A DNA stretch of 19,011 nt from Thermoplasmatota archaeon (GTDB lineage: Archaea > Thermoplasmatota > Penumbrarchaeia > Penumbrarchaeales > Penumbrarchaeaceae). The stretch's first letter is position 1. Each line of letters starts with the position of its first letter. Shown piece after piece: positions 1-19,011 of this stretch. The notes beneath the pieces were generated by a model. That model searched no databases, was not told the DNA's origin, and saw only the letters and a list, made by a program, of their open reading frames with translations. A program made the translations under genes and the position numbers. The stretch is taken from assembly GCA_965234725.1 (NCBI GenBank), contig CBDDUX010000114.1, positions 1 to 19,011 on the forward strand. Reading direction: 5' to 3'.

Positions 1-29
1 ATCGGTGGGCCAGTGTACCTTACATCGAT

Positions 30-650
30 TCAAAAAGTTAGTGAAGTACTGAAATTGAGATAATTAACAAAAATATTATCCTTTATTATTAAGTCATTAA
101 CAGCTTCAAAATGCATTGAACTCTCAGTACAATTAAATCTGCTAAATCTTATGGTGAAATTATTTTTATTGGATGATTGAAATCCAAAATCCCCAAGACA
201 ATTTACATTAAAAAGATCAATGAATGAGGCTTCAGCAAATATATTTTTAGACATGGGGCTATTCCCGTCGTTTTTATTTTCTATTGATATATTTTTAATA
301 TTAACATTATCTGAAGTGATTAAAATGTTAGTTGTATCCTTCTCAACATGATATAAAAGGGGATCTCCGATTCCTATCAATGAAATGGATCTGTTTATTG
401 TTAATAATTCAGTGTAGTTTCCTGAATAAATATGAATGGTGTCTCTATCTTTGCTATGATTGATCGCATCTTGGATCTTTGTATAATCACCGGAACCTCC
501 CTGGTCAACGATTATCGTATCTCCATTAATTTCAAAATCTGTAATAAACTCCGTTAAATTATCGATACTGATATTCTTATTCCCACTAATACCATTATTA
601 ATGGATAATATCAAGAACAAAATAACTAATGATAGTATGACCTTTCGCAT
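30..650 (-). CDS. Secreted protein with pectin lyase-like/NosD parallel beta-helix N-terminal region; possibly truncated
   Basis: N-terminal signal peptide (MRKVILSLVILFLIL) and the motif IIVDQGGSGDYTKIQDAIN...DTIHIYSGNYTELLTINRSISLIG typical of archaeal beta-helix surface proteins. SD-like GGAG upstream. The frame stays open after the TGA up to the window edge. Confidence 0.75.
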   Translation of the reverse strand: MRKVILSLVILFLILSINNGISGNKNISIDNLTEFITDFEINGDTIIVDQGGSGDYTKIQDAINHSKDRDTIHIYSGNYTELLTINRSISLIGIGDPLLYHVEKDTTNILITSDNVNIKNISIENKNDGNSPMSKNIFAEASFIDLFNVNCLGDFGFQSSNKNNFTIRFSRFNCTESSMHFEAVNDLIIKDNIFVNYLNFSTSLTF

Positions 651-772
651 GTAAATGTCTCCTTTCCTATCTTTGATATTGACTTAGATAATAATGAAAG
701 TAAATATATAATACTATTCATTTCATGAGATTTTTTATTATATTATTGACATATAATATACATTAAGTAAAT

Positions 773-809
773 AAAAAAGAATGAATCCTCCTCTCTTGGA
801 GGATTCATT
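773..809 (-). terminator. Intrinsic terminator-like hairpin downstream of the LamG gene
   Basis: Perfect 12-bp inverted repeat AATGAATCCTCC (780-791) / GGAGGATTCATT (798-809) with a 6-nt loop, followed on the minus strand by a T6 run (773-778). It lies about 20 nt after the stop at 831. Confidence 0.7.
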
Positions 810-830
810 TGACAGAGGTATTTCCGATAT

Positions 831-2381
831 TCAAACGGGATAGCATCTACCGATCACAACATCATCTATCAATCCAACAAGAGGCCAGTCTGGATTATCG
901 TCATCATACCATGTATGGAAACCCATACCGAAATGAAGATCGTTATCAGTTGGTCCAATGCCATATGAATTCGTTGTGGAAGCAGAGGATGAACCTTGTA
1001 AATGACTATCATAATACATATTCATAGTTCCAGCTCCTCCATCAGACCAGGCCCAAAGATGGTACCAATATCCGGGAGTAATACCTGATAATGAGAGTGT
1101 TGTTATTGAAGAATTGGCAAGTTCAAAATTAAAATCATAGGTTCCTAATAAACCATCATAAGATATGTATAGTCTATATCCGTCTGCATCACTTTCACCA
1201 TTCCAATCCCACTTTTCAATTAACATCATGTCATCCTCTTCATCTTCGATATTGACCCATAACTCAATATAGATGTCATCTTCACCTGATTGACAGTCAA
1301 AATCCAAATAATTACCCGTATCATCCACATTTACAAAACCTTCACCATACATTTGTAAACAATGTGTTCCGGGAGCACCATTCTCAACTGAATTTGAGCT
1401 TGCAAAAGCAGTTACGCCTGGTTCAGCGAGACCATAGCTGTGGAAATCAGATCTGACCATGTCATTTATAATATTCCGATCTTCAGGAACACTCTCAATC
1501 AATCCTTCATCCATAGGCCAATATCCAACATTTTCCATACCCCACATTCTATCACGAGAGGCAGGACTTGGAAGGTAAGATGTTTCTATAGCATAGAAAT
1601 AAACAAAATCTATATCTCCTTCATAGTAATCGGTTTGACCTTTTCCAATATAAAAAGGATATGCATTATTTCCAGGATCTTGTGGGAAATTACTGTATGT
1701 TTGGACTTCCCCATAATCACCTGGAGACGGATCAATATACAAACGTAATGTCCCTTCGAAAGACTCTACTGCAACATAATGCCATTCTCCGTCCCGAAGA
1801 TCATCTCCATCCGAATCGACTATAAATTGAGAGGCTGCATTTTCCCATACTTTAAAGGTTAATAGTCCTGCTGCAAGGTAAAAAGAGAAACCATTGTTAG
1901 CAAAATCACCTTTACTACAAATTGTCAATTCAACGTTATCTGAATCTGTTTTTATCATAGATGAAATCACGAAATTATAACTGTTTATATTAAAATCAGC
2001 GCTATGATTCACATGGACAAACTCATCCTCTCCATTAAAAGATAAAGCAGCATCACCGATATTGTTATCTCTCTCCTGTGTTGTACTAACATCTTCTTGA
2101 AGGAGCCCTTTTTTATCTCTTCCAGAATCATCCCATACATAATCTTGTGTAAATTTAGTTTCACCGATATAATAATCGTATGAATACACATCATTTAAAT
2201 TATAATATGCAATGTGTGTGTCATGGTTGTCAGTGATATAATTACCTGAATCCTCTCCATTAGGAGGAACTGCATTTGTTTCCAGTGGAATTAATGATAT
2301 CATCATCAATATCCCTATTGCAGAACAAACAAATATTACCTTCCAAGCTATGCTTTTTTTACTATTTTCATTCTTTTTCAA
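831..2381 (-). CDS. Secreted or membrane-anchored protein with two LamG (concanavalin A-like) domains
   Basis: N-terminal hydrophobic segment. LamG signatures ALSFNGEDEFV...DGEWHYVAV...LRLYID...FYIG...YEGDIDFV, and a second copy VGYWPMDEG...IELWV...WYHL...LHFG...GLIDDVVI. TTG start with GGAGG at 2391-2395. Confidence 0.85.
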   Translation of the reverse strand: MKKNENSKKSIAWKVIFVCSAIGILMMISLIPLETNAVPPNGEDSGNYITDNHDTHIAYYNLNDVYSYDYYIGETKFTQDYVWDDSGRDKKGLLQEDVSTTQERDNNIGDAALSFNGEDEFVHVNHSADFNINSYNFVISSMIKTDSDNVELTICSKGDFANNGFSFYLAAGLLTFKVWENAASQFIVDSDGDDLRDGEWHYVAVESFEGTLRLYIDPSPGDYGEVQTYSNFPQDPGNNAYPFYIGKGQTDYYEGDIDFVYFYAIETSYLPSPASRDRMWGMENVGYWPMDEGLIESVPEDRNIINDMVRSDFHSYGLAEPGVTAFASSNSVENGAPGTHCLQMYGEGFVNVDDTGNYLDFDCQSGEDDIYIELWVNIEDEEDDMMLIEKWDWNGESDADGYRLYISYDGLLGTYDFNFELANSSITTLSLSGITPGYWYHLWAWSDGGAGTMNMYYDSHLQGSSSASTTNSYGIGPTDNDLHFGMGFHTWYDDDNPDWPLVGLIDDVVIGRCYPV

Positions 2382-2455
2382 TCTAATCAGCCTCCATTCA
2401 TTTGTGTCCTCATCTTCCGTTTCGACGAAAACATTGACAATATTATTGATAACAG

Positions 2456-2470
2456 TATATAAATTTCACC
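2456..2470 (-). promoter_or_regulatory. Putative archaeal BRE/TATA promoter for the LamG gene
   Basis: Minus strand GGTGAAA-TTTATATA about 75 nt upstream of the start codon. A second candidate, GCAAAAGG-TTTATAAA, lies at 2497-2512. Confidence 0.5.
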
Positions 2471-2570
2471 TGAAATAATAATTTTTTATTGGTTAGTTTA
2501 TAAACCTTTTGCATTCGGAAAAATCAATTATTGGATAACACATTTCATCCGAAGGACACTGTCATTAGCG

Positions 2571-3477
2571 GATAGATCAATGTTACCTCCAAAAGCCGAG
2601 CGGACCTGATAGGGATTCTAAACAGGTTATTTTTTACTGATCCTATCAGAGACCTCATCCTATCTTACTTCAATGATCTATCATACAGGATCAATCCCCA
2701 GAAAAACTGATGATTACTCGTAACTCACTCTCGTAGATTGCAAAAGTAACGTGAGTTCGAGGTCGAAGGAAAAAACAGCCTTTGGCTTTGGTTTTTTCCT
2801 GTCCTCCACATCACAGATGTGAAGGTCCAGCATAACTAGTTCGTTTATATCGAAATGCATTATGCGGACCTTTGTGCAAGAATGATATTAATATGATGAT
2901 CTTGCACAAAAGATTCTGTTGTGTGTGTCATAATAATTACGGCTGGTAAATTTCTCTCGTCAAATCCATAACCTTGTAACTTCCTCTCGTCAATATCATT
3001 TAACTTCGGAAGTTCAAGTCCCAGCTAAATTAAATCGTCAATAATACATTTCATTTAGCGGGTCTGGAAATTTGACATAGATTTTTATTAACCAAAAATT
3101 TCCAGATCGAAATTTCCAGGTCCAGCTGAATTAAATCGTCAATATCAACATTCATTCAGCGGACTTTTATGCAATAATGAAAGTGAGATGATAATCATGC
3201 ATAAAAGATTCTATCATATTTTCATTAGATTACATCTGGTAAATTGCTCTCGTCAAATAGATATTGATACGCAATTTCCAGGCCCAGCATAATTAGACCG
3301 TCAATTTCAGAATTCATTATGCGGGCATTTTTCTTGGAATAGCATACAGAATCAATACCAAGAAAAATGATTGGCAGAGGACGAAGGGTTAAGAAGAGAG
3401 GATTGGATGTAAAGAATAAAAGTTTACTTCATCCTCCGCCTTTGTTTGTGGATTTATCGTGGCGCGTACGCCACTCC
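2571..3477 (-). ncRNA. Candidate large structured non-coding RNA (family not recognised)
   Basis: No ORF in the track. More than 15 stem-loops with compensatory changes between repeated copies. TATA box about 30 nt upstream of 3477 and a 5' hairpin GUGGCG-UACG-CGCCAC. Strand and ends are inferred. Confidence 0.5.
2717..3369. repeat. Array of four degenerate three-hairpin modules (~135 bp each)
   Basis: T-bulge hairpins at 2717-2761, 2943-2954/3109-3119, 2973-3018 and 3236-3281. A-bulge hairpins at 2824-2870, 3020-3062, 3120-3164 and 3282-3326. Perfect hairpins at 2871-2910, 3063-3106, 3164-3207 and 3326-3369. Confidence 0.9.
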
Positions 3478-3498
3478 ATTACTATTTAGTTCATGAGA

Positions 3499-3516
3499 AT
3501 ATATAATCCCTTCCCC
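3499..3516 (-). promoter_or_regulatory. Putative BRE/TATA promoter facing into the hairpin array
   Basis: Minus strand GGGGAAGGGA-TTATATAT. The predicted start near 3477-3479 coincides with the first GC-rich hairpin. Confidence 0.5.
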
Positions 3517-3580
3517 TAAGGTATCATTTTTTGTAACTCAATTCCAATAGAATGTGTTTTGAAATTGACCAATACTGAAC

Positions 3581-3630
3581 ATGATGACGGAGGACTACTG
3601 AGGTCCTTCCTGGACCTGACGATGATCTGA
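3581..3630 (+). ncRNA. Candidate box C/D sRNA
   Basis: Box C ATGATGA (3581-3587), 10-nt guide, D' CTGA (3598-3601), GGTCC/GGACC hairpin, C'-like TGACGA (3617-3622) and box D CTGA (3627-3630). The C-to-D span is 50 nt. Confidence 0.6.
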
Positions 3631-3634
3631 CCGT

Positions 3635-5095
3635 TTAATAGCTCTTTGAAAGCAGGACGATGGTTTCCGTGGGTCTTCCGCAATTCATGCAGTTTCCCTC
3701 ATCTTTTTGATATTGGCCGGTCTCGATATCGGCCATAGGATACCCTAAGAAGGTCCTGTCCAGGGTCTTTTCCATCTGTTCGGCACATTCCATTTCTCCG
3801 CACCAGTGGGTCCTTACGATACCGTCCCAACCTTCAAGGAGCTTTGTCCCGTCATCGAGGGAATCCGCATCTCTGATCCCGTTATCAAGGATCTCCGCGG
3901 CCCTCCTCGTGAGCTCATCTTCAACCTCTTTGAGGGCCCTTTCGCACTCCGACCTGAGGTCCGCCCTTTTCACGAATTCCTTGGTGGATAGGTCCCTCCT
4001 CTTGAAGACAAGGGAATTGTTCTCAATATCCCTGGGACCTATCTCGATCCTTACAGGTACGCCCTTGATCTCCCAATCATAGTGTTTGGACCCGGGCCTG
4101 TCGTCCCTTTCATCCAGTTTGACCCTGAAACCGAATCCCTTGATCTCTTCTTGGAGCTCCCTTGAAGCCTTCAAAACTATCTCTGTCTTATCCTTGGCAA
4201 GTATTGGGATTATCACGAATTGTATAGGGGCCAGTTTGGGAGGGAGTATGATCCCTTTGTTATCTCCATGGACTCCTACAACCGCACCCACCAGCCTTTC
4301 GGACATTCCGTATGTGGTCTGATGACAATGATGGAACTGACCGTCGGTCCCCTCATATTTGATATCATAGGGTCTGGAGAAGTTCTCTTTGTATTGATGT
4401 ATCGATCCCAGCTGTAGGGTCTTCATAGAGGGCATGAGCGTATCAACACCAATTGTATAGACCGCTCCCGCGAACTTGTCCCAATCAGGTCTCTTTACAA
4501 GTAAATAGGGAATGCAGAGGTCCTTTGCAACCTTGTGCATGATTACGCAGTCTTCCCGGATCTGCCTCTCCGCATCTTCGAAGGAATCGTGGCAGGTATG
4601 TGCCTCGAAGAAATGTATCTCCCTGACCCTGATGAAGGCCCTGGTCATCTTCGTTTCGTATCTGAATGTGTTGACGATCTGATACGTCTTGAGGGGAAGG
4701 TCATTGTGGGATCTGATCCAAAGGGAGAACATGGGGTACATGGCAGTCTCTGATGTCGGGCGAAGAAGAAGGGGAACATCGAGTTCGTTCAAACCTCCGT
4801 GTGTGACCCAGTAGACCTCAGAATCGAATCCTTTGATATGGTCCGCTTCTTTCTGGAACTCGGTCTTGGGGATGAGTAGCGGGAAGTACACCTCTTCATG
4901 TCCGGTCGCATCACATTCCCTCCTTATGATGGAATCGATGAACTGCATGACCTTCCAACCATAAGGTGTCCAGACATTCATCCCTTTGATGGGGTACCTT
5001 TTATCGGAGAGGCCGGAGACCTCCACCACATCGTTGTACCATTCGGAGAAATCGTCCTTGTTCAGGACTATCTTCTTCTTTTCATCCTCGGTCAT
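3635..5095 (-). CDS. proS: Proline--tRNA ligase, archaeal/eukaryote type
   Basis: FSEWY, LLLRPTSET, FRYETKMTRAFIRVREI, TTYGMSERL, anticodon-binding domain (WEIKGVPVRIEIGPRD), C-terminal Cys4 Zn site and terminal KSY. Confidence 0.98.
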   Translation of the reverse strand: MTEDEKKKIVLNKDDFSEWYNDVVEVSGLSDKRYPIKGMNVWTPYGWKVMQFIDSIIRRECDATGHEEVYFPLLIPKTEFQKEADHIKGFDSEVYWVTHGGLNELDVPLLLRPTSETAMYPMFSLWIRSHNDLPLKTYQIVNTFRYETKMTRAFIRVREIHFFEAHTCHDSFEDAERQIREDCVIMHKVAKDLCIPYLLVKRPDWDKFAGAVYTIGVDTLMPSMKTLQLGSIHQYKENFSRPYDIKYEGTDGQFHHCHQTTYGMSERLVGAVVGVHGDNKGIILPPKLAPIQFVIIPILAKDKTEIVLKASRELQEEIKGFGFRVKLDERDDRPGSKHYDWEIKGVPVRIEIGPRDIENNSLVFKRRDLSTKEFVKRADLRSECERALKEVEDELTRRAAEILDNGIRDADSLDDGTKLLEGWDGIVRTHWCGEMECAEQMEKTLDRTFLGYPMADIETGQYQKDEGNCMNCGRPTETIVLLSKSY

Positions 5096-5204
5096 CTCAT
5101 TTCACCTGACCAGGACCCATGTAACAAAGTTCGATTTATAACAGTTGTGCAGGTGTGTGCGGAACATATTGGAATTATATATCAAATGATCATTTTCATC
5201 ATTA

Positions 5205-5414
5205 ATGGTAAGATGTCCGAATTGTCATGGGAGATTGAAGGAGGAAAGCAGGGAGAGGACCCTTCCTGATCCGGATTTCGTGAACATGTCCGATGATGAA
5301 ATGATAGATTTCTTCAGTGAGGACATTACAGGTGAATATACCAACTGGGGAATGACCGAGGTCCATTTCAAATGCATGAAATGTGGAAAACGCTTTCGTC
5401 TCGAAAAGAAATGA
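5205..5414 (+). CDS. Small zinc-ribbon protein, unknown function
   Basis: CPNC at the N-terminus and CMKC at the C-terminus, separated by an acidic insert. It fills the gap between proS and rio1 without overlap. Confidence 0.7.
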   Translation: MVRCPNCHGRLKEESRERTLPDPDFVNMSDDEMIDFFSEDITGEYTNWGMTEVHFKCMKCGKRFRLEKK

Positions 5415-5417
5415 AAT

Positions 5418-6227
5418 TCAATCTTCCTCATCATCTTCACTTAGAGAGTCGATCAGTTCATTCTTAAGTCCTTCAGCTTCTTCTTGAGCACCCTTGACAC
5501 CTCTTTTATTGAAGAACAATGAGATGATCTTAAGGTCCCTTTCAAGAAGGTTAAGGGCATTGGGATGTTCGATATGGACGCTCTGTCCGACGTCGATGAA
5601 TACAGGATCGCCATCATAGAGGATATTGTATTCGGACAGGTCGGCATGAACCAGTTTACACTCGATGAAAAGTCTTTTTACAGTATCAAGGACAATTCTC
5701 CACATATCCTCCCATTCATCCACTTCCGCGTCGAGGAATTTGATCTGTGGTGCGGGTTTTCCACCATATTCGATGTAATCCATTATGAGAAGGTTCTTGA
5801 AGATCGCTCCTGGTTTGGGAACCCGTATGCCCTTTGCATGCATGGTCCTCAAGTTGAGATGCTCCTTCTTGGCCCATGTATAGATTATTCCCCTTTTGGA
5901 CCGATCAATTTTCTGGAACCTTCTGTCGCCTTCAATATATTCCAGAAATGCGCCGAATGTTGAAGTGGAGGTCCTGAATATCTTCATTGCGGAGAATCCC
6001 TCTTTTGTTTTGATCTTGTAGACGTTTGCCTCCTTCCCGGTGGAGATGGGACACTCCACGGTTATGATCTTGCCCCTTCTCATCAATTTGTAGATGTGGT
6101 CGAGGTTCTGGTGGTCGAAGACCTCATCATATGTCTTGAACTGTTCCGCATCGATTATGATGGTCTCCCTTTTGTTCCCTCTGTCGAATCTCTCGTCTAT
6201 CAGATCGTAGACATCCTTGCCTGGCAC
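5418..6227 (-). CDS. rio1: RIO1-family serine/threonine kinase
   Basis: ISTGKEANVY, WAKKEHLNL, LVHADLSEYNIL, FIDVGQSV. GTG start with GGAGGT. Directly downstream of aIF-1A. Confidence 0.96.
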   Translation of the reverse strand: MPGKDVYDLIDERFDRGNKRETIIIDAEQFKTYDEVFDHQNLDHIYKLMRRGKIITVECPISTGKEANVYKIKTKEGFSAMKIFRTSTSTFGAFLEYIEGDRRFQKIDRSKRGIIYTWAKKEHLNLRTMHAKGIRVPKPGAIFKNLLIMDYIEYGGKPAPQIKFLDAEVDEWEDMWRIVLDTVKRLFIECKLVHADLSEYNILYDGDPVFIDVGQSVHIEHPNALNLLERDLKIISLFFNKRGVKGAQEEAEGLKNELIDSLSEDDEED

Positions 6228-6266
6228 ATACCTCCATTCGGGTATGATTAGAAAAACCTGCCGGGA

Positions 6267-6596
6267 TCAACCTAGCAATGATTCGAGGTGCTTGGGGACC
6301 AGATTCCTTCTGGCCATGTTCTGGGATTGGATATGGGTATACCTGTAAAGCACATCTGCCTTATCATCCTGGAATTCCCAGGGGCAGATGATAACGAGGT
6401 CTCCCTCTCTCATCCACATCCTCTTCTTCAATTTGCCGCGGATCCTCCCTAGCCTCATCTTCCCATCCTCGCAGAAGATCTTGAGATGTCCACCACCCAG
6501 AGCCTGTTCGACGACGCCGAATATCTCCCTCTTCTTCTTGTTCGGGAGTTTGACCCTTACATATTCCTCTGGATTTTGATTATGATCGTTGGACAA
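6267..6596 (-). CDS. eif1a: Translation initiation factor aIF-1A
   Basis: FGVVEQALGG, CEDGKMRLGRIRGKLKKRMWMREGDLVI, PWEFQDDKADVLYRY. TTG start with GGTGG. Confidence 0.97.
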   Translation of the reverse strand: MSNDHNQNPEEYVRVKLPNKKKREIFGVVEQALGGGHLKIFCEDGKMRLGRIRGKLKKRMWMREGDLVIICPWEFQDDKADVLYRYTHIQSQNMARRNLVPKHLESLLG

Positions 6597-6738
6597 TGGA
6601 CCACCTGTTCCTTCCGGCCGGGAAGGGAGGAGGTCCTATAAGGGTTCTTTTATTAAGAAATTTCCATTTTCCAACTGGTAAATGTTCTGTCACATTTTCA
6701 CAGGGATTTAATATCTCATTGCCTTACATGCAAACAAG

Positions 6739-7956
6739 GTGATTGTCGTGAAGAGGATCCAAGCGAATCCCAGGTCCCTGGAGATCGAATATGCAATCAG
6801 GGATGTCGTACTACCTGCCGCAGAGCTTGAAAGAAAAGGTCATTCCATAATGAAGCTAAATATCGGGGATCCGAACAAATACGATTTCGATACACCGGAT
6901 TTCATCAAGGACGCTGTCAGGGAAGCCATGGATATGGGTCTTAACGGCTATTCACCTTCAAGCGGACTTCCAGAACTTCTTGATGCCATCGTCATGGATG
7001 AGAGGTCCCGGGGGAATAACATCGAGGCAAAGGATGTGGTCGTAACAAACGGTGTGACCGAGGCCTTGCAGATGATCTTCTATTCCGCTATCTCCCCAGG
7101 AGACGAGGTCCTGGTCCCGGGTCCTTCATATCCCCCATACATTACCTATGTTCAGATGGTGGGAGGTATCCCGGTCCCATATCGTACCATCGAGGAAGAG
7201 GGATGGATACCTGATGTCGATGATATAGAATCGAAGATAACACAGAGGACTAAGGCGATCGCCATCATCAATCCCAATAATCCGACCGGCGCCCTTTATG
7301 ACGCTTCCACCATCAGGAGGATAGGTGAGATCGCCGCAAAGAACGACCTGTTCCTGATCTCGGATGAGATATACAATCTAATGACATTTGAAGGAGAGAC
7401 CCCGTCCACCGCAAAGGAATGTCCCGATGTTCCCGTTATCACCATGAACGGGATCTCAAAGATATATCTGGCACCGGGATGGAGGATCGGATATCTTGCG
7501 ATCAGGGATGTTGATAACAGGCTTGAGGATATTCGGGATGGGATCATGCGGCAGTCAAGGGCCCGTCTCTGTGCCAATTCCATCTGCGAATACGGTTATT
7601 TCAAGGCATTGACAGGAGACCGGTCCCATATAAGACGCACAATGGAGAAACTGGATAGAAGGAGGGAGATCGCCTTCAGGAGATTGAACGAGATCGAGGG
7701 TACCTCATCACAAGATCCCGGTGGAGCTTTCTATATGTTCCCCAGGATAGATGCTCTAGGGAGAGGACCGTGGAAGGATGATAAGGAATTCTCCCTTGAT
7801 CTCCTCCATGAGGAGAAGGTCCTGACGGTCTTCGGTTCCGGTTTTGGTAAAGAGTATGGTTCCGGTCATTTCAGGATAGTTATCCTTCCCCAGGAGGAGG
7901 TCCTTGAAAAGGCCTTCGATGGGATTGAAAGGCTCCTAAAAAAGAGAGTTGTTTAA
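6739..7956 (+). CDS. Class I/II PLP aminotransferase, alanine aminotransferase-like
   Basis: IEYAIRD, LNIGDP, INPNNPTG, SDEIY, SKIYLAPGWRIG (PLP lysine), GAFYMFP, GSGFG...HFRIVILP. The start could be the GTG at 6739 or 6748. Confidence 0.92.
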   Translation: MIVVKRIQANPRSLEIEYAIRDVVLPAAELERKGHSIMKLNIGDPNKYDFDTPDFIKDAVREAMDMGLNGYSPSSGLPELLDAIVMDERSRGNNIEAKDVVVTNGVTEALQMIFYSAISPGDEVLVPGPSYPPYITYVQMVGGIPVPYRTIEEEGWIPDVDDIESKITQRTKAIAIINPNNPTGALYDASTIRRIGEIAAKNDLFLISDEIYNLMTFEGETPSTAKECPDVPVITMNGISKIYLAPGWRIGYLAIRDVDNRLEDIRDGIMRQSRARLCANSICEYGYFKALTGDRSHIRRTMEKLDRRREIAFRRLNEIEGTSSQDPGGAFYMFPRIDALGRGPWKDDKEFSLDLLHEEKVLTVFGSGFGKEYGSGHFRIVILPQEEVLEKAFDGIERLLKKRVV

Positions 7957-8122
7957 CTGCACAGACGGATCAGTTCAATTATCAACTTTAATGTTTATTA
8001 AATTCTATATTATTATTTTTTCCATAATCAATGGTTTTTGTGGGTTAATATGTCAGGGGTCAGTTTATTATCTAATGTGCAAGACTTATGCACATCCGTA
8101 TCCGTCCAAGGGAGTGACCCCG

Positions 8123-8608
8123 ATGTCCTTTAGACCTATCCCGTTCGTTATTTCATTTGTACTGCTCCTTGCAGCCTGGGTAATGCTCACATCAAGCCTC
8201 CAATACCAGGAGCTGATAGCTGGGATCATTGTATCGATTGCCCTTGCGATAACTCTAAATTCAATTCTTCCCAAGGGTGGAAAAGGTAACCTTCCTGTCA
8301 GGATCGTCAAGGCCTTCTGGTTCTTGATCGTCCTCGGAAAGGAAATGGTGGTGGCCAACCTGGATGTAGCCTTCAGGGTTCTTCATCCAAAGATGCCAAT
8401 AAGACCTGGGATCGTGGAGGTCAAACCCGGACTTGATTCTGAAATGGGCAAGGTCCTCCTATCGAATTCGATCACTCTGACCCCCGGGACCCTTTCAATG
8501 GACTGGATAGGTGACAGTCTATTCATACACTGGATAAATGTTAACGAGGAAGATACGGATTCCTCGATCGAACCCCTGAACAGGGCCGTGAAGGGGGTGT
8601 TCCCATGA
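8123..8608 (+). CDS. mbxA: Mbx/Mbs subunit A (MnhE-like)
   Basis: ANLDVA...PIRPGIV...LSNSITLTPGTL...LFIHWINV. Start moved to the ATG at 8123, which follows GGAGTGA. Confidence 0.88.
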   Translation: MSFRPIPFVISFVLLLAAWVMLTSSLQYQELIAGIIVSIALAITLNSILPKGGKGNLPVRIVKAFWFLIVLGKEMVVANLDVAFRVLHPKMPIRPGIVEVKPGLDSEMGKVLLSNSITLTPGTLSMDWIGDSLFIHWINVNEEDTDSSIEPLNRAVKGVFP

Positions 8609-8868
8609 TACCTGAATGGTTCCTCTGGGCAACGGTTATTCTATCCGGAGGGGCCACCCTGCTTGCACTGGTAAGGGCTTTCATCGGACCTACAACACCG
8701 GATCGGATCGCCGCTGTTGATAACATGACCACTGTGATGGCATCATACTTCCTGATCCTGGCCCTGATGATGGGGTCTGGTATCTACGTGGATGTGGCCA
8801 TGGTCTATGCGATCATCTCTTTCATCGGGATCCTTGTATTTGCCAGATATCTGGAGGGATCGATTTGA
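8605..8868 (+). CDS. mbxB: Mbx/Mbs subunit B (MnhF-like)
   Basis: GPTTPDRIAAVD, YVDVAMVYAIISFIG...ARYLEG. ATGA overlap with the previous gene. Confidence 0.9.
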   Translation: MIPEWFLWATVILSGGATLLALVRAFIGPTTPDRIAAVDNMTTVMASYFLILALMMGSGIYVDVAMVYAIISFIGILVFARYLEGSI

Positions 8869-9212
8869 CACCAGTAAACGAGATCGTCGGGATGGTGTTC
8901 ATTGCAATCGGGCTTCTATTCCAGGTACTTGGGGCCCTGGGTCTGGTAAGGTTTCCGGATGTCTACAACAGGCTTCAGGCTGCAACCAAAACCATAACCC
9001 TGGGGGCGATATCCATTGCTCTCGGGGTCGGGATCGCTGATGTATCCCTGCTTCCAAAGTCCTTGATAGTGGCCTTTTTCCTCCTCCTTACCAACCCGAT
9101 CGCATCCCATGCCATTGCAAGGGCGGCATACAGGAGCGGGGTTCCTTTGTGGAAAGGTTCGGTTATTGACATGTATGGAAAGGCCCTCAAAAAGGAGGGT
9201 GATGGAAAATGA
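8865..9212 (+). CDS. mbxC: Mbx/Mbs subunit C (MnhG-like)
   Basis: GLVRFPDVYNRLQAATKTITLG, LTNPIASHAIARAAY. Confidence 0.92.
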   Translation: MTPVNEIVGMVFIAIGLLFQVLGALGLVRFPDVYNRLQAATKTITLGAISIALGVGIADVSLLPKSLIVAFFLLLTNPIASHAIARAAYRSGVPLWKGSVIDMYGKALKKEGDGK

Positions 9213-9478
9213 ACTCTCTCATCTTCCTCACCCTGGGGACATTGATGTTCATTGTAATGATCGCGCTTGCTGTTGCAGCTGTCATTTCCAAGGACCTGAT
9301 AAGAAGCGCCATACTCCTGGCCGGAGTATCCCTGGTGGCATCGTTCATCTTCGTCCTTCTCAAGGCTCCCGATGTTGCCATGGCAGAAGCTTCCATAGGA
9401 TCCGCCCTAACCGCCATGATAATGGTCTATGCCATCAGACGGACCAAGAGGTTCGAGGAAGGAGGTGGCCAACGATGA
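9209..9478 (+). CDS. mbxD: Mbx/Mbs subunit D (DUF4040-like)
   Basis: KDLIRSAI, LKAPDVAMAEASIGS. Confidence 0.88.
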   Translation: MNSLIFLTLGTLMFIVMIALAVAAVISKDLIRSAILLAGVSLVASFIFVLLKAPDVAMAEASIGSALTAMIMVYAIRRTKRFEEGGGQR

Positions 9479-10197
9479 TGGAAAGGTCCATTCTCCACAG
9501 GTCCATTCCTGCCATCCTGGTCGCATTATTGGTTGCAGGGACGTTGTTCCTCGCATTCGTAGAGATAGGATTCGGGGACCCAAGGGTCGATGACTCGGAC
9601 TCGGTATCCAGCAGATACATAGCGAATGGAACCGATGAAACAGGTTCCTCGAACCTTGTAACATCCGTAGTGGTAAATTACAGAGGATTCGACACTCTTG
9701 GAGAGGTTACGGTCCTGTTCCTTGCGGCAGCAGGAGTATCCGCAATGATATCCCTGCTTCCCGAGGATGAAAAAAGGAAGAAGGGGCCGAAACCCTCTTT
9801 GATAATGACACAGGGAGGAATGCTGGCAATACCAGTGATAGTCCTCTTCGGCACATACATCTTCCTCCATGGACATCTGTCTCCAGGTGGCGGTTTTCAG
9901 GGAGGCGTTGTCATCGCATCCGCTTTCCTGCTCTACCTCCTTGTTAAACCCGGTGCAAAGGTATCCCATTCAGGGCTTTCCCTCTCGGAATCGATAGCAG
10001 GCCTTGCGTTCGTAGGGATCGGTCTTGTCGGTCTGGCCGTTTCCGGGATATTCCTTGACAACGTCATTGAAGGGTTCGGAGAGGTCGGGCAGCTTGTATC
10101 GGGTGGACTCATACCCTTGATCTATATCGCAATAGGGATCAAGGTGGGTTCGGAGATGTCCGGCCTGGTCACCAAAATGAGGGGGGATGCCTCATGA
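9475..10197 (+). CDS. mbxF: Mbx/Mbs MnhB-like subunit (MbxF / MbsE)
   Basis: NLVTSVVVNYRGFDTLGEVTVL and HGHLSPGGGFQGG. Start moved to the ATG at 9475, which follows GGAGGTGG. Confidence 0.88.
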   Translation: MMERSILHRSIPAILVALLVAGTLFLAFVEIGFGDPRVDDSDSVSSRYIANGTDETGSSNLVTSVVVNYRGFDTLGEVTVLFLAAAGVSAMISLLPEDEKRKKGPKPSLIMTQGGMLAIPVIVLFGTYIFLHGHLSPGGGFQGGVVIASAFLLYLLVKPGAKVSHSGLSLSESIAGLAFVGIGLVGLAVSGIFLDNVIEGFGEVGQLVSGGLIPLIYIAIGIKVGSEMSGLVTKMRGDAS

Positions 10198-10583
10198 CCG
10201 ATTACAGCTGGGTCTTCTTCGGCGGGATAATGGCCCTCATGGCCGTTGGGATCTGGGCAATCCTCTCCAGGAGGAACTTGATCAAGATGATAATGGGTCT
10301 GGTTATCCTCGAGACCGCTGTCAACCTCCTTCTTGTGGCCGTAGGCTATGTCAACGATAGGGCCGCTCCGATAGTTGGTGGCGACACCGGCCTGCCCAAT
10401 TCTCCCGTGGGAGAGGTCGTCGATCCGATCCCGCAGGCACTGGTCCTCACTGCCATTGTCATAGGATTGGCAACAACCGCACTGGCTCTAGTGGCTGCTA
10501 TAGGTTACTTCAGGACCTCGGGTACTCTGGAACTGAAAAGCTTCAGTTACGGAAGGACCGATGAAAAGGAGGTGAGGAAATGA
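10194..10583 (+). CDS. mbxG: Mbx/Mbs subunit G (MnhC-like)
   Basis: NLIKMIMGL, VDPIPQALVLTAIVIG. Confidence 0.92.
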   Translation: MTDYSWVFFGGIMALMAVGIWAILSRRNLIKMIMGLVILETAVNLLLVAVGYVNDRAAPIVGGDTGLPNSPVGEVVDPIPQALVLTAIVIGLATTALALVAAIGYFRTSGTLELKSFSYGRTDEKEVRK

Positions 10584-12064
10584 TCGTGGATCCTGTTCTC
10601 CTCGTGGTTATCCCACTTTCTGCGGCGTTCCTCGTTCCGCTTATCTCATTGCTATCGAAGAAGATAGCCGAGTGGGTCCCGCTCCTTGGGCTTCTTGGAA
10701 TGGCCGTGGTAATGGCCCTCAACCTCCCAGAACTCCTCAACGGACCAGTTACTTCCACAACAGGGGGTTTCAACCCACCATGGGGTATCTCGATCATCAT
10801 GACTCCCCTGGGCGGACTCTTTGCAGCCGGTATGATAGGGGTCGGCCTGTTCGTATCCATATCCGGGATCAGCGATTCGGGAAGACCCCATCAGACCGTA
10901 TACAACACCTTTGTGATGATGGCAACCGCAGGGTCCGTGGGGATGGTCATCACGGGAGACCTCTTCAATATGTTCGTCTTTCTGGAGATAACCTCGATCT
11001 CCGGAGTGGTCCTTGCAGCAATGCCAAGGAAAGGTCATGATAAGGGCCTGAACTGGAGAGGAGCCGCGGTGTATGCAGTTGTTGGCGGTGTGGCATCATT
11101 CCTGGTACTTGCAGGAGTAGCACTGCTTTACGGTTCCACCTCAACATTGAACATAGCCCAGATCGCTTCCAGGATCGAGGATGTGGATACATTTGTCATA
11201 GGGGCCGCATTCCTTGCAATGTTCGTGGGATTCGGCATAGAATCCGAACTTTTCCCTTTGAACGGATGGGCACCGGAGGTTTACAGAGGTTCCAGATGGG
11301 GTACCGGTTCCCTCTTTTCCGGTGTTATTGGGAAAGCGGGACTGCTTGCACTCATAAGGGTATCCATAACCGTCCTATCTCCTGGTCTGGAGAACGATCT
11401 CATCCCGGATATTCTGCTTTGGGTCGGAGCAGCCACATACATCTTCGGAGAGGCGGCCGCCTTTTCTTCAAAGGACCTCTATCGTATCCTTGGCTATTCA
11501 TCTATAGGCATGTTTGGACTTCTCACGGTCTCTTTTTCCCTAGGTGTTGAAAATGGGATCAGAGGAGGGACCTTGCTCCTTATCGGTCATATGTTGGTAA
11601 AACCCCTGCTTTTCTCCATGGCCTCTTATGCAGGCAGGATGAAGAAAGGAGATGTTCCCATCTCATCCCTGAAAGGTCTGATAAAAACATCTCCCCTTGC
11701 AGGTATATTGATGACAATTGGAATACTGGCCCTGATCGGTATGCCCCCCTCCCCCATATTCTGGGGTAAGTTCCTGCTAATATCTTCTGCAGGTTCGGAG
11801 GCCCAATGGCTCTTGATCGGGGTCCTCCTGACAGGCACCATTCTCGAGGCAGGATATCTAGGAAGGATGCTTTTCAATATCTTCGATACCAGGAGATCGC
11901 ATTCTCCCTCAAAGCTGCCGATCGCAAGAGGACTCATGGGAATTGCAGCTGTGCTGACGATACTCTTGATCGGGATCGTCCCGGGGCCATTGAATGATAT
12001 GGCCGATCTTATCGTTAAGGAACTTCTGGACCCGTCAATTTACACCTCATGGGGGGTGATCTGA
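10580..12064 (+). CDS. mbxH: Mbx/Mbs antiporter-like subunit H (MnhD-like)
   Basis: TGDLFNMFVFLEI, STLNIAQ, ELFPLNGWAPEVY, RILGYSSI; about 14 hydrophobic segments. Confidence 0.88.
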   Translation: MIVDPVLLVVIPLSAAFLVPLISLLSKKIAEWVPLLGLLGMAVVMALNLPELLNGPVTSTTGGFNPPWGISIIMTPLGGLFAAGMIGVGLFVSISGISDSGRPHQTVYNTFVMMATAGSVGMVITGDLFNMFVFLEITSISGVVLAAMPRKGHDKGLNWRGAAVYAVVGGVASFLVLAGVALLYGSTSTLNIAQIASRIEDVDTFVIGAAFLAMFVGFGIESELFPLNGWAPEVYRGSRWGTGSLFSGVIGKAGLLALIRVSITVLSPGLENDLIPDILLWVGAATYIFGEAAAFSSKDLYRILGYSSIGMFGLLTVSFSLGVENGIRGGTLLLIGHMLVKPLLFSMASYAGRMKKGDVPISSLKGLIKTSPLAGILMTIGILALIGMPPSPIFWGKFLLISSAGSEAQWLLIGVLLTGTILEAGYLGRMLFNIFDTRRSHSPSKLPIARGLMGIAAVLTILLIGIVPGPLNDMADLIVKELLDPSIYTSWGVI

Positions 12065-13956
12065 TGGATGTGATCAACGAACCGGCAACCTTGCTATTTG
12101 TCCTCGGAGCTGGCGGGATCCTCTCAATGCTTCTCTGGAAAGTTCGATGGTTCGCCGCTCTCATTTCGATCCTGACCTCTCTGATCGCGGCAGGGATGGT
12201 CCTCCATACAGGTATCCTTGGGAAGATATCCTCTTTGAAGATCTGGGAATATTCTGTTTTCGGTGATGTATCCCTATCCCTGGGAACGAATTGGTTCTCA
12301 TATCTATTCCTTGCATCCATTGTGGTACTTGCACCACTTGTCCTGATATATTCCTGGGAGCCTATGAAAACAAGGCAAAAGGATAGGCCTTTCTACGGCC
12401 TTTTCATGGTCTCCCTGGTAGGAGCAGCTGGTGTCACAATGGCAAGGGACCTTCTGACCATGTTCCTGTTCTGGGAACTGATGACCTGGCCGGTTATCCT
12501 TCTGATTGGCGACGGCAGGCCAGGGTCCGGGAAGGCATTGAAGATGTATTTCGGATTTGGAATGCTCTCGGCAGGAGGCATCCTCGGGATGTTGGCCATC
12601 GTCAATTGGTCCCAGGGAGGAATTGCCTATTCCGATGCGGTAATGACATTGAAGGAAGGGAGTACCGGACTGAGGATAGCCTTCCTCCTCCTCGGAGCTG
12701 CCGCATTCGGAACCAAAGCGGCGATAGTCCCCTTCCATATATGGGCTCCGGGGGCCTATGGCCACACAGAGGATTCTTTCACATCATTCTTTTCCGGGGG
12801 CCTTTCCAAGACAGGCATCTATGGTGCTTTTCTTGTTGTTGACGTTTTTATCGGAACAGCGGTCCTCCTCTCTTACGGGTCGGTCAACGGACTTACACCG
12901 ATCGGTTTCTTCATTGCTCTGGCCGGTGCGATCACCGCTCTTATCGGGGGTATGATGGCAATGATGCAGGACGATGCAAAGAAGCTCCTTGCCTATTCAT
13001 CGATCTCTCAGCTTGGGTATATCTTCGTTGGCCTTGGGGTCGGAGGCTCGACCGCAACAGCTGGAGCACTCTACCATGTCCTCAATCACACGGCATTCAA
13101 GGCGGTTCTGTTCATGGGCCTTGGGGCGGTGATATACAGGACAGGCGAGCATCGATTGTCAAGGCTGGGTGGTATGATACATGTCATGCCTGCCACATTC
13201 TGGTGCTTCCTTGTGGGAATATTTGCCGCTGCGGCGATCCCGATAACATCGGGTCTTGCTTCGAAATGGCTGATCTACGAGGGAGCCCTGGAAAAGGGTG
13301 TAGGCGTACTCGTTCCGATCCTTTTCCTGGCATCCGTCGCTGCTTTCCTCTATTCATTCAGAATACTTCAGGGCGGTTTCATGGGACAATTGAGGGACGA
13401 GTTCAGGGATGTGAAGGAAGCCCCGCTAACAATGCTAATCCCAATGATCCTGATAATGATCGCTTTGATAGTTTTCGCATTCATCCCCGGTCTCCCCATG
13501 GAGTTGATCTCCAGAGCAATGGGTGATATCGGAATGGAAGCCCCGGAGTATTCCATCTTCTCTCTGAAATCCGGTGTGGGAAGCTATTCCGGCCTTATTG
13601 TGATGATCGCTGTGGGTGCGGGTTTCCTGACCTCAGTATTGATGTTCTTTTCCAGACCGCTTGGGAGGCACATTAATCTCAGAGACACCTTCACAGCCGG
13701 AGAGGAACCGATCCCGAATATGGACAAGCGCTATCATTACGCCTGGAAGTTCTATGCTCCCTATGAGAGGTTCCTGAAACCCTATTTCAACAACTGGATA
13801 GGAAAAGGTTGGGCAAAGGTATACAAGTTAGTCTCTCAGATAACAAGGCTTCATCGATCGATCATGAACGGAGATATCACAGGATACCTTTGGCTCGTGT
13901 TCGGATCCCTGGTTCTCCTGGGGGTCATTCTTTACAGGTTCGGGGGGTGGTTCTGA
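12064..13956 (+). CDS. mbxH': Mbx/Mbs antiporter-like subunit H' (NuoL/MrpA-like)
   Basis: DLLTMFLFWELM, KAAIVPFHIWAP, QDDAKKLLAYSSISQLGY, HVLNHTAFKAVLF. Start at the TGATG overlap at 12064. Confidence 0.88.
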   Translation: MDVINEPATLLFVLGAGGILSMLLWKVRWFAALISILTSLIAAGMVLHTGILGKISSLKIWEYSVFGDVSLSLGTNWFSYLFLASIVVLAPLVLIYSWEPMKTRQKDRPFYGLFMVSLVGAAGVTMARDLLTMFLFWELMTWPVILLIGDGRPGSGKALKMYFGFGMLSAGGILGMLAIVNWSQGGIAYSDAVMTLKEGSTGLRIAFLLLGAAAFGTKAAIVPFHIWAPGAYGHTEDSFTSFFSGGLSKTGIYGAFLVVDVFIGTAVLLSYGSVNGLTPIGFFIALAGAITALIGGMMAMMQDDAKKLLAYSSISQLGYIFVGLGVGGSTATAGALYHVLNHTAFKAVLFMGLGAVIYRTGEHRLSRLGGMIHVMPATFWCFLVGIFAAAAIPITSGLASKWLIYEGALEKGVGVLVPILFLASVAAFLYSFRILQGGFMGQLRDEFRDVKEAPLTMLIPMILIMIALIVFAFIPGLPMELISRAMGDIGMEAPEYSIFSLKSGVGSYSGLIVMIAVGAGFLTSVLMFFSRPLGRHINLRDTFTAGEEPIPNMDKRYHYAWKFYAPYERFLKPYFNNWIGKGWAKVYKLVSQITRLHRSIMNGDITGYLWLVFGSLVLLGVILYRFGGWF

Positions 13957-14900
13957 TGGATGCCACCGGATGGGTCATGGTATTTCTGGCTCCGTTACTT
14001 GCCTTCATACTTGGACATCTGTTCCTGGGTATATCCCGGAAGTTCACTGCAAGGATACACCGGAGGGTGGGCCCACCTGTCTTGCAGCAGTTCATCGATG
14101 TGATGAAGTTATTTGGAAAGCGGGAATCCACTACCCATTCCTGGGTCCAGGACATGGGTGCCCTCTTTGCCGTGATCGGTGTTTTCGCATCCATACTGTT
14201 CATTCCCATCGGAGGTGAAGCCATCCTTTCCTTCCAGGGGGACCTGATAGTTCTGGCATATCTTCTGGTAATAGCCCCTCTTGGGATGGCACTTGGAACC
14301 GGAGCAACGGGAAATCCGAACTCTGCTATCGGTGTTTCAAGAGGACTCATGCTGATGATGGGTTATGAGCTTCCTTTCGCCATGGTATTGGTTGCTGTAA
14401 TGCTCCATTATGATACAGCCTCGCTTGGTGATATCGTGGAGGCCCAGAAGGGTGCCTTCAATTGGGCCATTCTTGCCCTTCCTCTTTCAGCTATCGCAGC
14501 GGACCTTTCTCTTCAAGCGATGCTCGGAGAGAAACCATTCGATCAACCGGTGGCTCCTTCGGAGATAGCATCAGGTCCCATGGTCGAGTTCGGAGGGAAG
14601 TACCTGGGTATGCTTATGGTATGGCATGCAATGTCCATAGTCGTGGAAGCAGGATTGTTCGTTGACCTCTTCCTCGGTGGAGGTGTGATATTCTCTGGCA
14701 GTTCGGTCTTTGGACTGGTTGGCAATATCGTGGTATGGGCACTGCTTTCGCTTGTAATGTGGCTGATATCAGTTTCAATAAATACCGTGTTCGGCCGATT
14801 CAAGATGGGTCAGGCCCTAAAATTTTACTGGGGGGTTCCCACACTTCTTGCCTTATTGAGCCTGGCGTATGTTGTGGTGACCAATCTGGGGGTGATTTAG
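13956..14900 (+). CDS. mbxM: Mbx/Mbs subunit M (NuoH-like)
   Basis: RKFTARIHRRVGPPVLQQFIDVMKL, KPFDQPVAPSEIASGPMVEFGG. Start at the TGATG overlap at 13956. Confidence 0.92.
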   Translation: MDATGWVMVFLAPLLAFILGHLFLGISRKFTARIHRRVGPPVLQQFIDVMKLFGKRESTTHSWVQDMGALFAVIGVFASILFIPIGGEAILSFQGDLIVLAYLLVIAPLGMALGTGATGNPNSAIGVSRGLMLMMGYELPFAMVLVAVMLHYDTASLGDIVEAQKGAFNWAILALPLSAIAADLSLQAMLGEKPFDQPVAPSEIASGPMVEFGGKYLGMLMVWHAMSIVVEAGLFVDLFLGGGVIFSGSSVFGLVGNIVVWALLSLVMWLISVSINTVFGRFKMGQALKFYWGVPTLLALLSLAYVVVTNLGVI

Positions 14901-15506
14901 ATGTCGGAGGAGAATCCAAAAGGAGGACTTCTTGATCAGGATGGAAGACCGATTACGAACCTCCCCGAGAGGGGATTCGTCAGAAAAGTAGCCGATTGGG
15001 CTTCATCACGATCCATGTGGCTTCTCTGGTATTGCACCGGGTGCGGAGCGGTGGAGCTTCCTCCGTCATTCACATCCAGATATGATATGGAGAGGTATGG
15101 TATAGGGCCAATGGCCACTCCGAGACAGGCTGATATTTTCCTCATCACGGGATACCTGTCCGTCAAGACGTTGAAGAGGATCGTTAGGTCCTATGAGCAG
15201 ATGCAGGATCCCAAATATGTCTTAGGGCACGGCTCCTGCACCATTGACGGGGGAATGTACTGGGACTCTTATGCAACCGTCAAGGATGTGGGATTGTACA
15301 TCCCAGTGGACCTCTACATAGCTGGTTGCATGCCAAGACCTGAAGCGATATTCCAGGCGTTCGAAAAACTTCAGGATATGATAACGAAGGGTGAAGCTCT
15401 GGGCTGGAAGAAGTACAAGGAGAACTATCAATGGTATCGGAAGAACCAGGACAAGGTCTTCAGGAGAGGACCTGACTGGGCGCTGGAGGAACCGGAACTG
15501 AGGTGA
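14901..15506 (+). CDS. mbxJ: Mbx/Mbs subunit J (NuoB-like Fe-S subunit)
   Basis: CTGCGAVE, RYDMERYG, TPRQAD, GSCTIDGG, PVDLYIAGCMPRPE. Confidence 0.93.
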   Translation: MSEENPKGGLLDQDGRPITNLPERGFVRKVADWASSRSMWLLWYCTGCGAVELPPSFTSRYDMERYGIGPMATPRQADIFLITGYLSVKTLKRIVRSYEQMQDPKYVLGHGSCTIDGGMYWDSYATVKDVGLYIPVDLYIAGCMPRPEAIFQAFEKLQDMITKGEALGWKKYKENYQWYRKNQDKVFRRGPDWALEEPELR

Positions 15507-15507
15507 T

Positions 15508-17204: not shown

Positions 17205-17208
17205 TCCT

Positions 17209-17727: not shown

Positions 17728-17834
17728 ACCAGAATTTCTTTGATGATCCTTTTAATAATTGGAATCAGAACCAACATGGGAAAAAGATAGATAATACTAT
17801 CACAATGAAACGGAAGAAGTAGCCGGATAGGATC

Positions 17835-18668: not shown

Positions 18669-18675
18669 ATCTAAA

Positions 18676-18963: not shown

Positions 18964-19011
18964 TCTTAACCAATCTTGGTTTGGGTCCTGTGTTTTTTTA
19001 AGGGTCCTTTA

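Follow-up and report, generated by a model that had tools for sequence, protein, structure and literature searches.

What kind of element is a dense array of hairpins that lies between genes in an uncultured archaeon? The array in question occupies positions 2717-3369 of a 19,011-nt stretch of DNA, contig CBDDUX010000114.1 of a Thermoplasmatota archaeon (assembly GCA_965234725.1), the whole of which is here called the window. It comprises seven local bulged hairpins, an eighth of the same type that pairs over a long range, and four hairpins with perfect stems. An earlier note, made from the letters of the window alone, had described it as four modules of three hairpins and as a candidate structured RNA or single-stranded DNA system. 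The array represents one locus of a family of non-coding repeats, built of hairpin modules, that is dispersed in multiple copies over the chromosomes of uncultured Thermoplasmatota. We are confident that the family is real, conserved, non-coding and dispersed; it is restricted to this lineage and apparently has not been described before. Its basic unit consists of two bulged hairpins, T and A, which are paralogous and share one orientation, followed by a perfect hairpin of T-run/A-run type, P. Both T and A have 4 bp, one extrahelical base, 7 bp and a loop of 22-23 nt with CGTC(A/G)AT in its 5' half. A unit may stand alone, follow another head to tail, lie nested within the loop of a further T hairpin or contain two additional hairpins. 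By analogy with the relations between REPs and RAYT, between IS200/IS605 or PATE elements and TnpA, and between attC and IntI, the modules may work as hairpins of single-stranded DNA that are read by an enzyme encoded elsewhere, as REP/BIME-like or PATE-like repeats; we put the chances of this reading at about even.

The hairpins of the window are not a product of chance. A scan for stems of 4 bp, one bulge and 7 bp with loops of 18-26 nt and at most one mismatch found seven hairpins on the plus strand of 2717-3369, three of T type and four of A type. By comparison, 1000 dinucleotide shuffles contained a mean of 0.095 and a maximum of 2, and 23 equal tiles of the rest of the window held 0 or 1 each (3 in total). 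The DNA fold of the region has -107.7 kcal/mol against -57.3 +/- 4.8 kcal/mol for 20 shuffles (z-score -10.4), and the centroid fold also shows a four-way junction closed by an outer, long-range T hairpin. The hairpins of the earlier note are thus present where it had placed them, and dinucleotide-shuffled sequence lacks their regularity. As it had said, all four A hairpins have loops of exactly 22 nt, and all four P hairpins have perfect stems of 10-12 bp with loops of 18-24 nt. Three of its four T hairpins form locally with 0 mismatches; the fourth (CTGG-t-AAATTTC) is instead a long-range pairing of 2943-2954 with 3109-3119 around 2973-3106. Its scheme of four modules, each T-A-P, is right as to the presence of T, A and P hairpins and has to be amended in two respects: one T hairpin nests another module, and module 1 has 64 extra nt with two hairpins (2767-2800 and 2803-2825).

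Relatives of the array were collected by one scan of a set of species-representative genomes with a 19-base pattern on the A hairpin, which returned 23 loci (cited below by L numbers). Ten of these came from six metagenome-assembled genomes (MAGs) labelled Thermoplasmatota or Thermoplasmatales, and the other 13 were 12 bacterial loci and one haloarchaeal locus. All 13 pattern matches in the ten Thermoplasmatota loci had the 3' arm of a T hairpin just upstream and a P hairpin downstream, a context seen at 0 of the 13 other loci. No locus of the scanned genome set had four pattern matches, so that the source genome of the window seems to be absent from it. A covariance model of the 91-nt T-A unit (R1) gave 34 matches at E <= 0.02, all within these Thermoplasmatota arrays or the window array, and its sole match elsewhere was at L004 with E = 0.24. 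Several MAGs have two or three array loci, and one contig begins within an array. At the Rfam gathering threshold the window gave 0 matches, which agrees with the earlier view that the array is neither tRNA nor intron, and nine related loci gave tRNAs only. A permissive Rfam search of 2300-3700 returned 6 weak hairpin look-alikes, all far below threshold, and a search of plasmid and phage collections with 2600-3420 (blastn, distant mode) returned no match.

Compensatory change maintains the fold. An alignment of 16 T-A units from seven genomes (2 units of the window and 14 of the loci) has standard pairs in 96.6% of its 352 stem cells. Double-sided change occurs at 13 of 22 pairs, in 53 cells, whereas shuffled partners give 16.1 +/- 3.2 (none of 500 shuffles reaches 53), and pairing falls to 21-43% when partners are slid by 1-3 columns. 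The compensatory change that had been read from the four copies of the window therefore holds on the larger set. Stem variation sits in few positions, each with three or four types of Watson-Crick pair; elsewhere the stem is invariant or has two pair types only, and the closing pairs are nearly fixed. The bulge is A in 16/16 A hairpins and T in 15/16 T hairpins. The 5' halves of the loops are nearly fixed (TCNCGTCRAT in T and TARNNCGTCRAT in A) and the 3' halves are free to vary. CGTC lies within the loop beside the 5' arm in 15/16 T loops and in 16/16 A loops, the A motif being partly set by the search pattern.

Strong covariation and fixed helix geometry also speak for structured non-coding RNAs, either an array of small hairpin RNAs or one multi-branch RNA of roughly 265 nt, with promoters in the AT-rich P loops or the linkers, a stop at the T-runs of the P hairpins and selection on the RNA fold. 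Such RNAs would suit the conservation of stems and 5' loop halves across genomes with free 3' loop halves, the composites of constant length with a four-way junction, the T-run that starts every P hairpin and the retention of arrays at orthologous loci. We nevertheless regard this explanation as rather unlikely. The 352 stem cells comprise 337 Watson-Crick pairs, 3 G.T, 6 A.C and 6 other mismatches, so that a wobble excess is seen on neither strand (3 and 6 cells against the 6 other mismatches); the lack of a wobble preference on either strand is suggestive of a constraint at the DNA level, unlike the usual RNA helices. In addition, the copy number and composition of arrays vary at orthologous loci, orientation is opposite in L009 and L012 and inconsistent relative to neighbouring genes, partial hairpin copies flank the arrays, and no Rfam family was found. 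For these reasons two of the options offered in the earlier note, a multi-domain non-coding RNA and a processed guide or decoy array, are disfavoured, and a third, recombinase or HUH substrate hairpins, fits best. Comparison by eye of the variable loop halves with the flanks, which bears on a guide-like role, gave a single suggestive match, in module 4; modules 2 and 3 had none. Overall, the arrays behave more like DNA-level repeats or mobile elements than like an RNA gene. That the bulge is one-sided and never lost speaks against a symmetric protein that simply binds double-stranded DNA.

The modules are combined in three composite forms, each of which is seen in more than one genome and at loci that are not related. 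The plain T-A-P form, found for example in L016, L020, L023 and modules 3-4 of the window, consists either of single units or of head-to-tail series whose period is about 139-165 nt. The 196-nt T-X-Y-A-P form is common to module 1 of the window and L001 (84% mean column identity); the X hairpin is kept in L001 with 2 compensatory pairs, the Y hairpin is nearly identical there, and the T1 loop of the window carries the motif variant CGTAG. The nested form consists, in order, of the 5' arm of an outer T, 18-20 nt of loop (2955-2972 in the window, containing TCTCGTCAA), an inner T, an inner A, a conserved P with the arms TCTGGAAATT...AATTTCCAGA, TC, the 3' arm of the outer T, an outer A and a P. 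It measures 265 nt in the window, 265 nt in L012 and 266 nt in L018, at non-orthologous loci of three genomes, and 415 nt in L002, which has one further nesting. Across the window, L012 and L018 the inner module is near-invariant except in the 3' halves of its loops: the inner T stem of the window is the same in L012 and L018 (with C as the bulge in L018), and the arms of the inner P hairpin recur in these two loci as well as in L002 and L016. The outer T stems of these three differ in letters and keep 11/11, 10/11 and 11/11 pairs, and a fourth long-range outer T stem, in L002, has 10/11 pairs by reading. MAFFT misaligned the outer A and the second P (P2) of the three composites, and the usable pair counts are those of the outer T, inner T, inner A and P1. 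Internal P copies are usually without the outer nucleotides of the 3' arm, and the terminal copy is intact. In the window the cleanest unit adjoins the intact end and the far unit is the most degenerate; a partial copy of the terminal P (2679-2706), which ends 10 nt upstream of T1, forms the left edge of the array.

Table 1. Hairpins of the array, the adjoining conserved block and the nearest protein genes, in window coordinates
Feature	Position	Strand	Details
Partial copy (3' part) of the terminal hairpin P4	2679-2706	+	86% identical to 3340-3367; 28 nt, aligning with P4 positions 15-42
T1 hairpin, CTCG-t-AACTCAC / GTGAGTT-CGAG	2717-2761	+	loop 22 nt, 0 mismatches
X hairpin, 10-bp stem AGGAAAAAAC / GTTTTTTCCT	2767-2800	+	extra element between T1 and A1
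Y hairpin, CACATC aca GATGTG with outer CCT/AGG pairs	2803-2825	+	second extra element of module 1
A1 hairpin, GTCC-a-GCATAAC / ATTATGC-GGAC	2825-2869	+	loop 22 nt, 1 mismatch (C.A)
P hairpin of module 1, perfect 11-bp stem, T-run/A-run type	2871-2910	+	loop 18 nt
5' arm of the long-range outer T hairpin, CTGG-t-AAATTTC	2943-2954	+	pairing in the centroid fold; 11/11 Watson-Crick pairs
Inner T hairpin, CTTG-t-AACTTCC / GGAAGTT-CAAG	2973-3018	+	loop 23 nt, 0 mismatches
Inner A hairpin, CCC-a-GCTAAAT / ATTTAGC-GGG	3019-3063	+	loop 22 nt, 1 mismatch, at the outermost pair
Inner P hairpin, sequence-conserved class, TCTGGAAATTT ... AAATTTCCAGA	3063-3106	+	11 bp, loop 22 nt
3' arm of the outer T hairpin, GAAATTT-CCAG	3109-3119	+	closes the four-way junction around 2973-3106
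Outer A hairpin, GTCC-a-GCTGAAT / ATTCAGC-GGAC	3120-3164	+	loop 22 nt, 0 mismatches
P hairpin at the end of the 265-nt composite (2943-3207), 10-bp stem	3164-3207	+	loop 24 nt
T4 hairpin, CTGG-t-AAATTGC / GCAATTT-CCAG	3236-3281	+	loop 23 nt, 0 mismatches
A4 hairpin, GCCC-a-GCATAAT / ATTATGC-GGGC	3282-3326	+	loop 22 nt, 0 mismatches
Terminal P hairpin, perfect 12-bp stem	3326-3369	+	loop 20 nt
Flanking G-module: long hairpin around GGTTAAGAAGAGAGGATTG, then palindrome GTGGCGCGTACGCCAC	3372-3482	unassigned	conserved block
Secreted protein of 206 aa with signal peptide, no Pfam family	30-650	minus	low-GC side
Secreted LamG-domain protein	831-2381	minus	Pfam; low-GC side
Archaeal-type prolyl-tRNA synthetase	3635-5095	minus	Pfam

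If the modules are hairpins of single-stranded DNA, they would form in replication or in a transposition-like reaction; the extrahelical base would mark the active strand and the loop motif beside the 5' arm would be the site of recognition or cleavage. The structure-specific enzyme encoded elsewhere may be a Y1 HUH transposase (IS200/IS605 or RAYT type), a tyrosine recombinase that reads hairpins, or another kind of integrase. Its activity, or recombination at palindromes, could copy modules next to or into palindromic hairpins, which would account for the tandem and nested arrays, the partly duplicated terminal hairpin and the inversion. The P hairpins, with their T-run and A-run, may in addition act as two-way transcription stops for neighbouring genes. 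The structural rules are unusually clear, with a bulge that would mark the strand, a loop motif, three classes of hairpin and a self-nested composite of constant length, and they therefore suggest that uncultured Thermoplasmatota possess a DNA enzyme specific to structure, whose discovery would reveal how Archaea read single-stranded DNA hairpins.

The family falls outside the full definition of each of the known systems tested, namely REP, PATE, attC, CRISPR and strict MITE. REPs are clustered imperfect palindromes that carry a conserved GTAG or CGTC tag; their loops measure 2-20 nt in GTAG families and 4-5 nt in CGTC families (PMC3733652, Table 1). The present modules share with REPs and BIMEs the short, imperfect and bulged palindromes, which are clustered, intergenic and often between convergent genes; a conserved unpaired tetranucleotide, in this case CGTC, itself one of the REP tags, or CGTAG in two copies; stems that vary with pairing kept; long persistence at fixed loci; and an enzyme that would be encoded elsewhere. 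They differ in that the hairpins are 44-46 nt long with loops of 22-23 nt, outside the definition of 20-40 nt with short loops, in that the tag lies inside the loop and not outside the stem, in the head-to-tail units, which are rare or absent in REP families, in the three hairpin classes and nested composites, and in the archaeal host. A 2018 survey lists IS200-type Y1 proteins only, with no RAYT subclass, in Archaea (PMC6006769), and no Y1 domain of RAYT or HUH type was found within about 10 kb on each side of the ten loci. Our search of the literature found no account of REP/BIME-like clustered hairpin repeats in Archaea or of such repeats in Thermoplasmatota, and a 2026 paper on archaeal rolling-circle Rep proteins describes hairpin origins and nothing like these modules (PMC13107129).

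PATEs of Haloquadratum are derived from IS605, have similar near-terminal palindromes and no inverted terminal repeats, receive insertions of other small repeats in their palindromes, and are located 3' of a 4-6-nt target without target duplication (PMC3119063). The present family is likewise archaeal, without a transposase gene and without inverted terminal repeats, and its T and A hairpins, which have geometry, loop motif and orientation in common in 16/16 units, correspond to the pair of similar, co-oriented palindromes of a PATE. PATEs may also consist of fused ends only, and insertions into their palindromes give nested conglomerates. Unlike PATEs, the present family has a third hairpin, P, and fixed composites, and most arrays are flanked by a partial hairpin copy of 34-43 nt. 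By reading, no conserved oligonucleotide precedes T across loci, and neither tnpA nor tnpB was found in the array loci (about 10 kb on each side).

The attC sites of integrons have R'' (RYYYAAC) and R' (GTTRRRY) boxes, an unpaired central spacer and two or three extrahelical bases, and cassette open reading frames (ORFs) lie between them. In common with attC, the modules would be defined by structure more than by sequence and read as single-stranded hairpins, in which extrahelical bases would set the strand; terminal structures are variable and sometimes branched, arrays run in one orientation, and clusters can lack a nearby integrase. The modules nevertheless contain no R box: C follows GTT in 16/16 T hairpins, so that GTTRRRY never occurs, and the A hairpins are without AAC/GTT. 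They have one bulge and not two or three, no unpaired central spacer, no cassette ORFs between sites (the hairpins abut, with 0-1 nt between T and A) and no IntI. A likeness to CRISPR lies in the polar-looking arrays, in the palindromic P of roughly 44 nt that recurs between inserts, and in the intact terminal copy with the most degenerate units at the distal end of the window array; Cas1-type integration is known to duplicate a whole palindromic repeat. However, the 'spacers' here are structured modules homologous to one another instead of being unique, the sequence of P changes from locus to locus and in some cases inside a single array, and the scanned proteins include no cas gene products. 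The exclusion of CRISPR and attC in the earlier note is upheld by these defining features, which were read and not modelled. Strict MITEs differ in that all modules here are direct, with no terminal inverted repeats, and the flanking copies have 34-43 nt instead of a short duplication.

These flanking copies raise the alternative that the modules are a new class of archaeal mobile DNA, in which a structure-reading integrase would insert sets of single-stranded-DNA hairpins, 90-265 nt long, either at the base of palindromic, terminator-like hairpins or into their own T loop at a fixed position. Insertion would duplicate nearly the whole target palindrome (34-43 nt), like the staggered Cas1-type duplication of CRISPR repeats, so that arrays would grow at the end with the intact hairpin and decay at the other end. 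We consider this possible, with a low probability. In 6 of 9 arrays the first T is preceded, at a distance of 8-12 nt, by the end of a direct copy of the terminal P that covers its positions 1 to 34-43; the copy is 100% identical in L012, L016, L018 and L023 though the enclosed T/A units differ. The stop codon of a reductase gene lies, by reading, within the palindromic 5' arm of P in both L009 (2206-2739) and L012 (7676-8272), even though the two arrays run in opposite orientations. In L018 (10143-11678), the last 8 codons and the stop of TiaS lie within a partial P copy.

Several observations weigh against the single-stranded DNA reading or against the movement of the modules. No transposase, integrase, HUH or Cas domain occurs among the 153 proteins within about 10 kb of the arrays (19 of the window and 47 and 87 in the loci), and an all-against-all BLAST of the ORFs of the loci showed no shared unknown protein that recurs beside arrays. 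Known REP and IS200/IS605 hairpins have far smaller loops than the 22 nt seen here. The case from wobble pairs is based on just 15 non-Watson-Crick cells, and several columns of the A hairpin were fixed by the search pattern, which leaves the T hairpins, the variable stem pairs and the P hairpins free. The pattern of partial copies is uneven, with an inverted half copy in L002, an ambiguous case in L014 and the 3' part kept in the window. Between L009 and L012, the P loops agree more closely when compared in the orientation of the arrays (11 of 20, by reading) than in that of the genes (7 of 20), which speaks against a simple target duplication. No pair of filled and empty sites was seen, as every orthologous locus examined carries an array, and mobility is thus inferred only. 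Arrays also persist at orthologous loci where LonB is only 75% identical, with compensatory change in place, as in the A hairpin before the shared P hairpin of L020 and L023. This persistence with in-place compensation fits a host role equally well, with two-way terminators, topology sites and switches of surface genes as possibilities.

The surroundings of the arrays bear on such a host role. Arrays are intergenic and lie among housekeeping and surface-protein genes; their flanking genes are convergent, divergent or co-directional, and the array has no consistent orientation to them. Seven of 11 arrays are near, and mostly adjoin, genes that encode large surface or secreted proteins or components of the archaellum. 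The orthologous loci form two sets, L009/L012 and L001/L020/L023, in which every member has an array, and the copy number and composition of the array vary within them. In L009 and L012 the array lies between a ferredoxin-thioredoxin reductase-rubredoxin gene and a PKD/CARDB gene, with opposite orientation and different content; the two loci are 75% identical in LonB, 65% in the reductase and 41% in the surface protein. In L001, L020 and L023 it lies upstream of a gene for a surface protein of roughly 1200 aa; L020 and L023 share 39% identity in this protein and 60-95% in most neighbours. This suggests that the surface-protein genes beside arrays evolve fast or are replaced, and arrays mark the borders of such fast-changing genes.

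Accordingly, the arrays could be regulatory or architectural DNA of the host, such as invertible switches, recombination sites by surface genes, or sites for chromatin or topology proteins; REP/BIME sites are bound by gyrase and IHF. The frequent surface, secreted or archaellum genes, their exceptional divergence at orthologous loci and the flip in orientation between L009 and L012 are in favour of it, as are the position of the window array at a jump in GC content and the bracketing of the L001 array by the 3' part of a tRNA-Met and an inverted 24-nt copy of it (692-715 and 933-956, 83% complementary). It seems unlikely all the same, since binding to double-stranded DNA leaves the strict one-sided bulge and the complementary 3' arm unexplained, and four arrays (L002, two in L014 and L018) are among housekeeping genes only. 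There is also no recombinase gene nearby, and no second array closes a 'cassette' around the surface-protein genes. L014 contains a second array, and its two arrays, at 1600-1890 (+) and 5378-5700 (-), are inverted around three genes, for ornithine carbamoyltransferase, the small subunit of DNA polymerase D and a 170-aa protein without a Pfam family. The pair is probably not a transposon, as the genes are housekeeping genes.

Three similar ORFs on the minus strand of the window (2714-2860, 3051-3155 and 3225-3317) raise a further explanation, that the antisense strand carries tandem genes for small peptides of about 30 aa (M-x-x-x-I-D-[DG]-L-I-x-L-[GD]-L-E...), in which Ile and Leu codons at two positions vary, by reading, only synonymously. 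This is largely refuted and very improbable. The ORF is kept in 3 of 16 units, while 11 have in-frame stops and 2 are without ATG; in 5 of these 11 the stop is a TAG at one and the same stem position, which covaries. The second position of the codon is the most variable, the third shows no excess, and the ATG lies inside a stem and covaries with a downstream codon. A protein search with a 95-aa ORF over the L018 array gave 8 candidates, none significant. The antisense small ORFs are an artefact of the repeat and liable to be miscalled as genes. Since arrays break assemblies and yield such spurious small ORFs, the covariance model should be useful for the annotation of these genomes.

Two other candidates were rejected. 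A replication origin with ORB-like repeats by cdc6, raised by the arms of TTTCCAG type, was dismissed because no cdc6/orc1 is nearby and there are several arrays per genome. Integration scars linked to tRNA genes were dismissed because only the orthologous pair L001/L023 adjoins a tRNA and P sequences are locus-specific.

The array adjoins a conserved block, the G-module, copies of which lie 3' of the terminal P at three non-orthologous loci: the window (3372-3482), L018 (9745-9852, minus strand) and L014 (1888-2016, plus strand). Its small palindrome has a GCGTAC core in the window and L018. The block gave no Rfam match, and the alignment of the three copies was too poor for a consensus fold. 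It could be a small RNA gene of a new kind or a further module of the repeat family.

The window has archaeal gene content by Pfam, which includes, besides the genes of Table 1, a RIO kinase, aIF1A and an aminotransferase. Its 19 proteins contain no candidate effector and no transposase, integrase, HUH or Cas domain, as the earlier note had said of the effector, and no tRNAs were found in it. The array is inside 1.25 kb of gene-free DNA (2382-3634), with the prolyl-tRNA synthetase on one side and the LamG protein on the other. GC content shifts at the array from 30-38% (window 1-3500) to about 50% (3500-19011), and the low-GC side looks like a variable island with the array as its boundary. 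On the other side, 7949-17727 holds a complete 10-gene membrane complex of Mrp-antiporter and NuoH-B-C-D-I-like proteins, of the Mbh/Mbx type and ordinary for such an archaeon.

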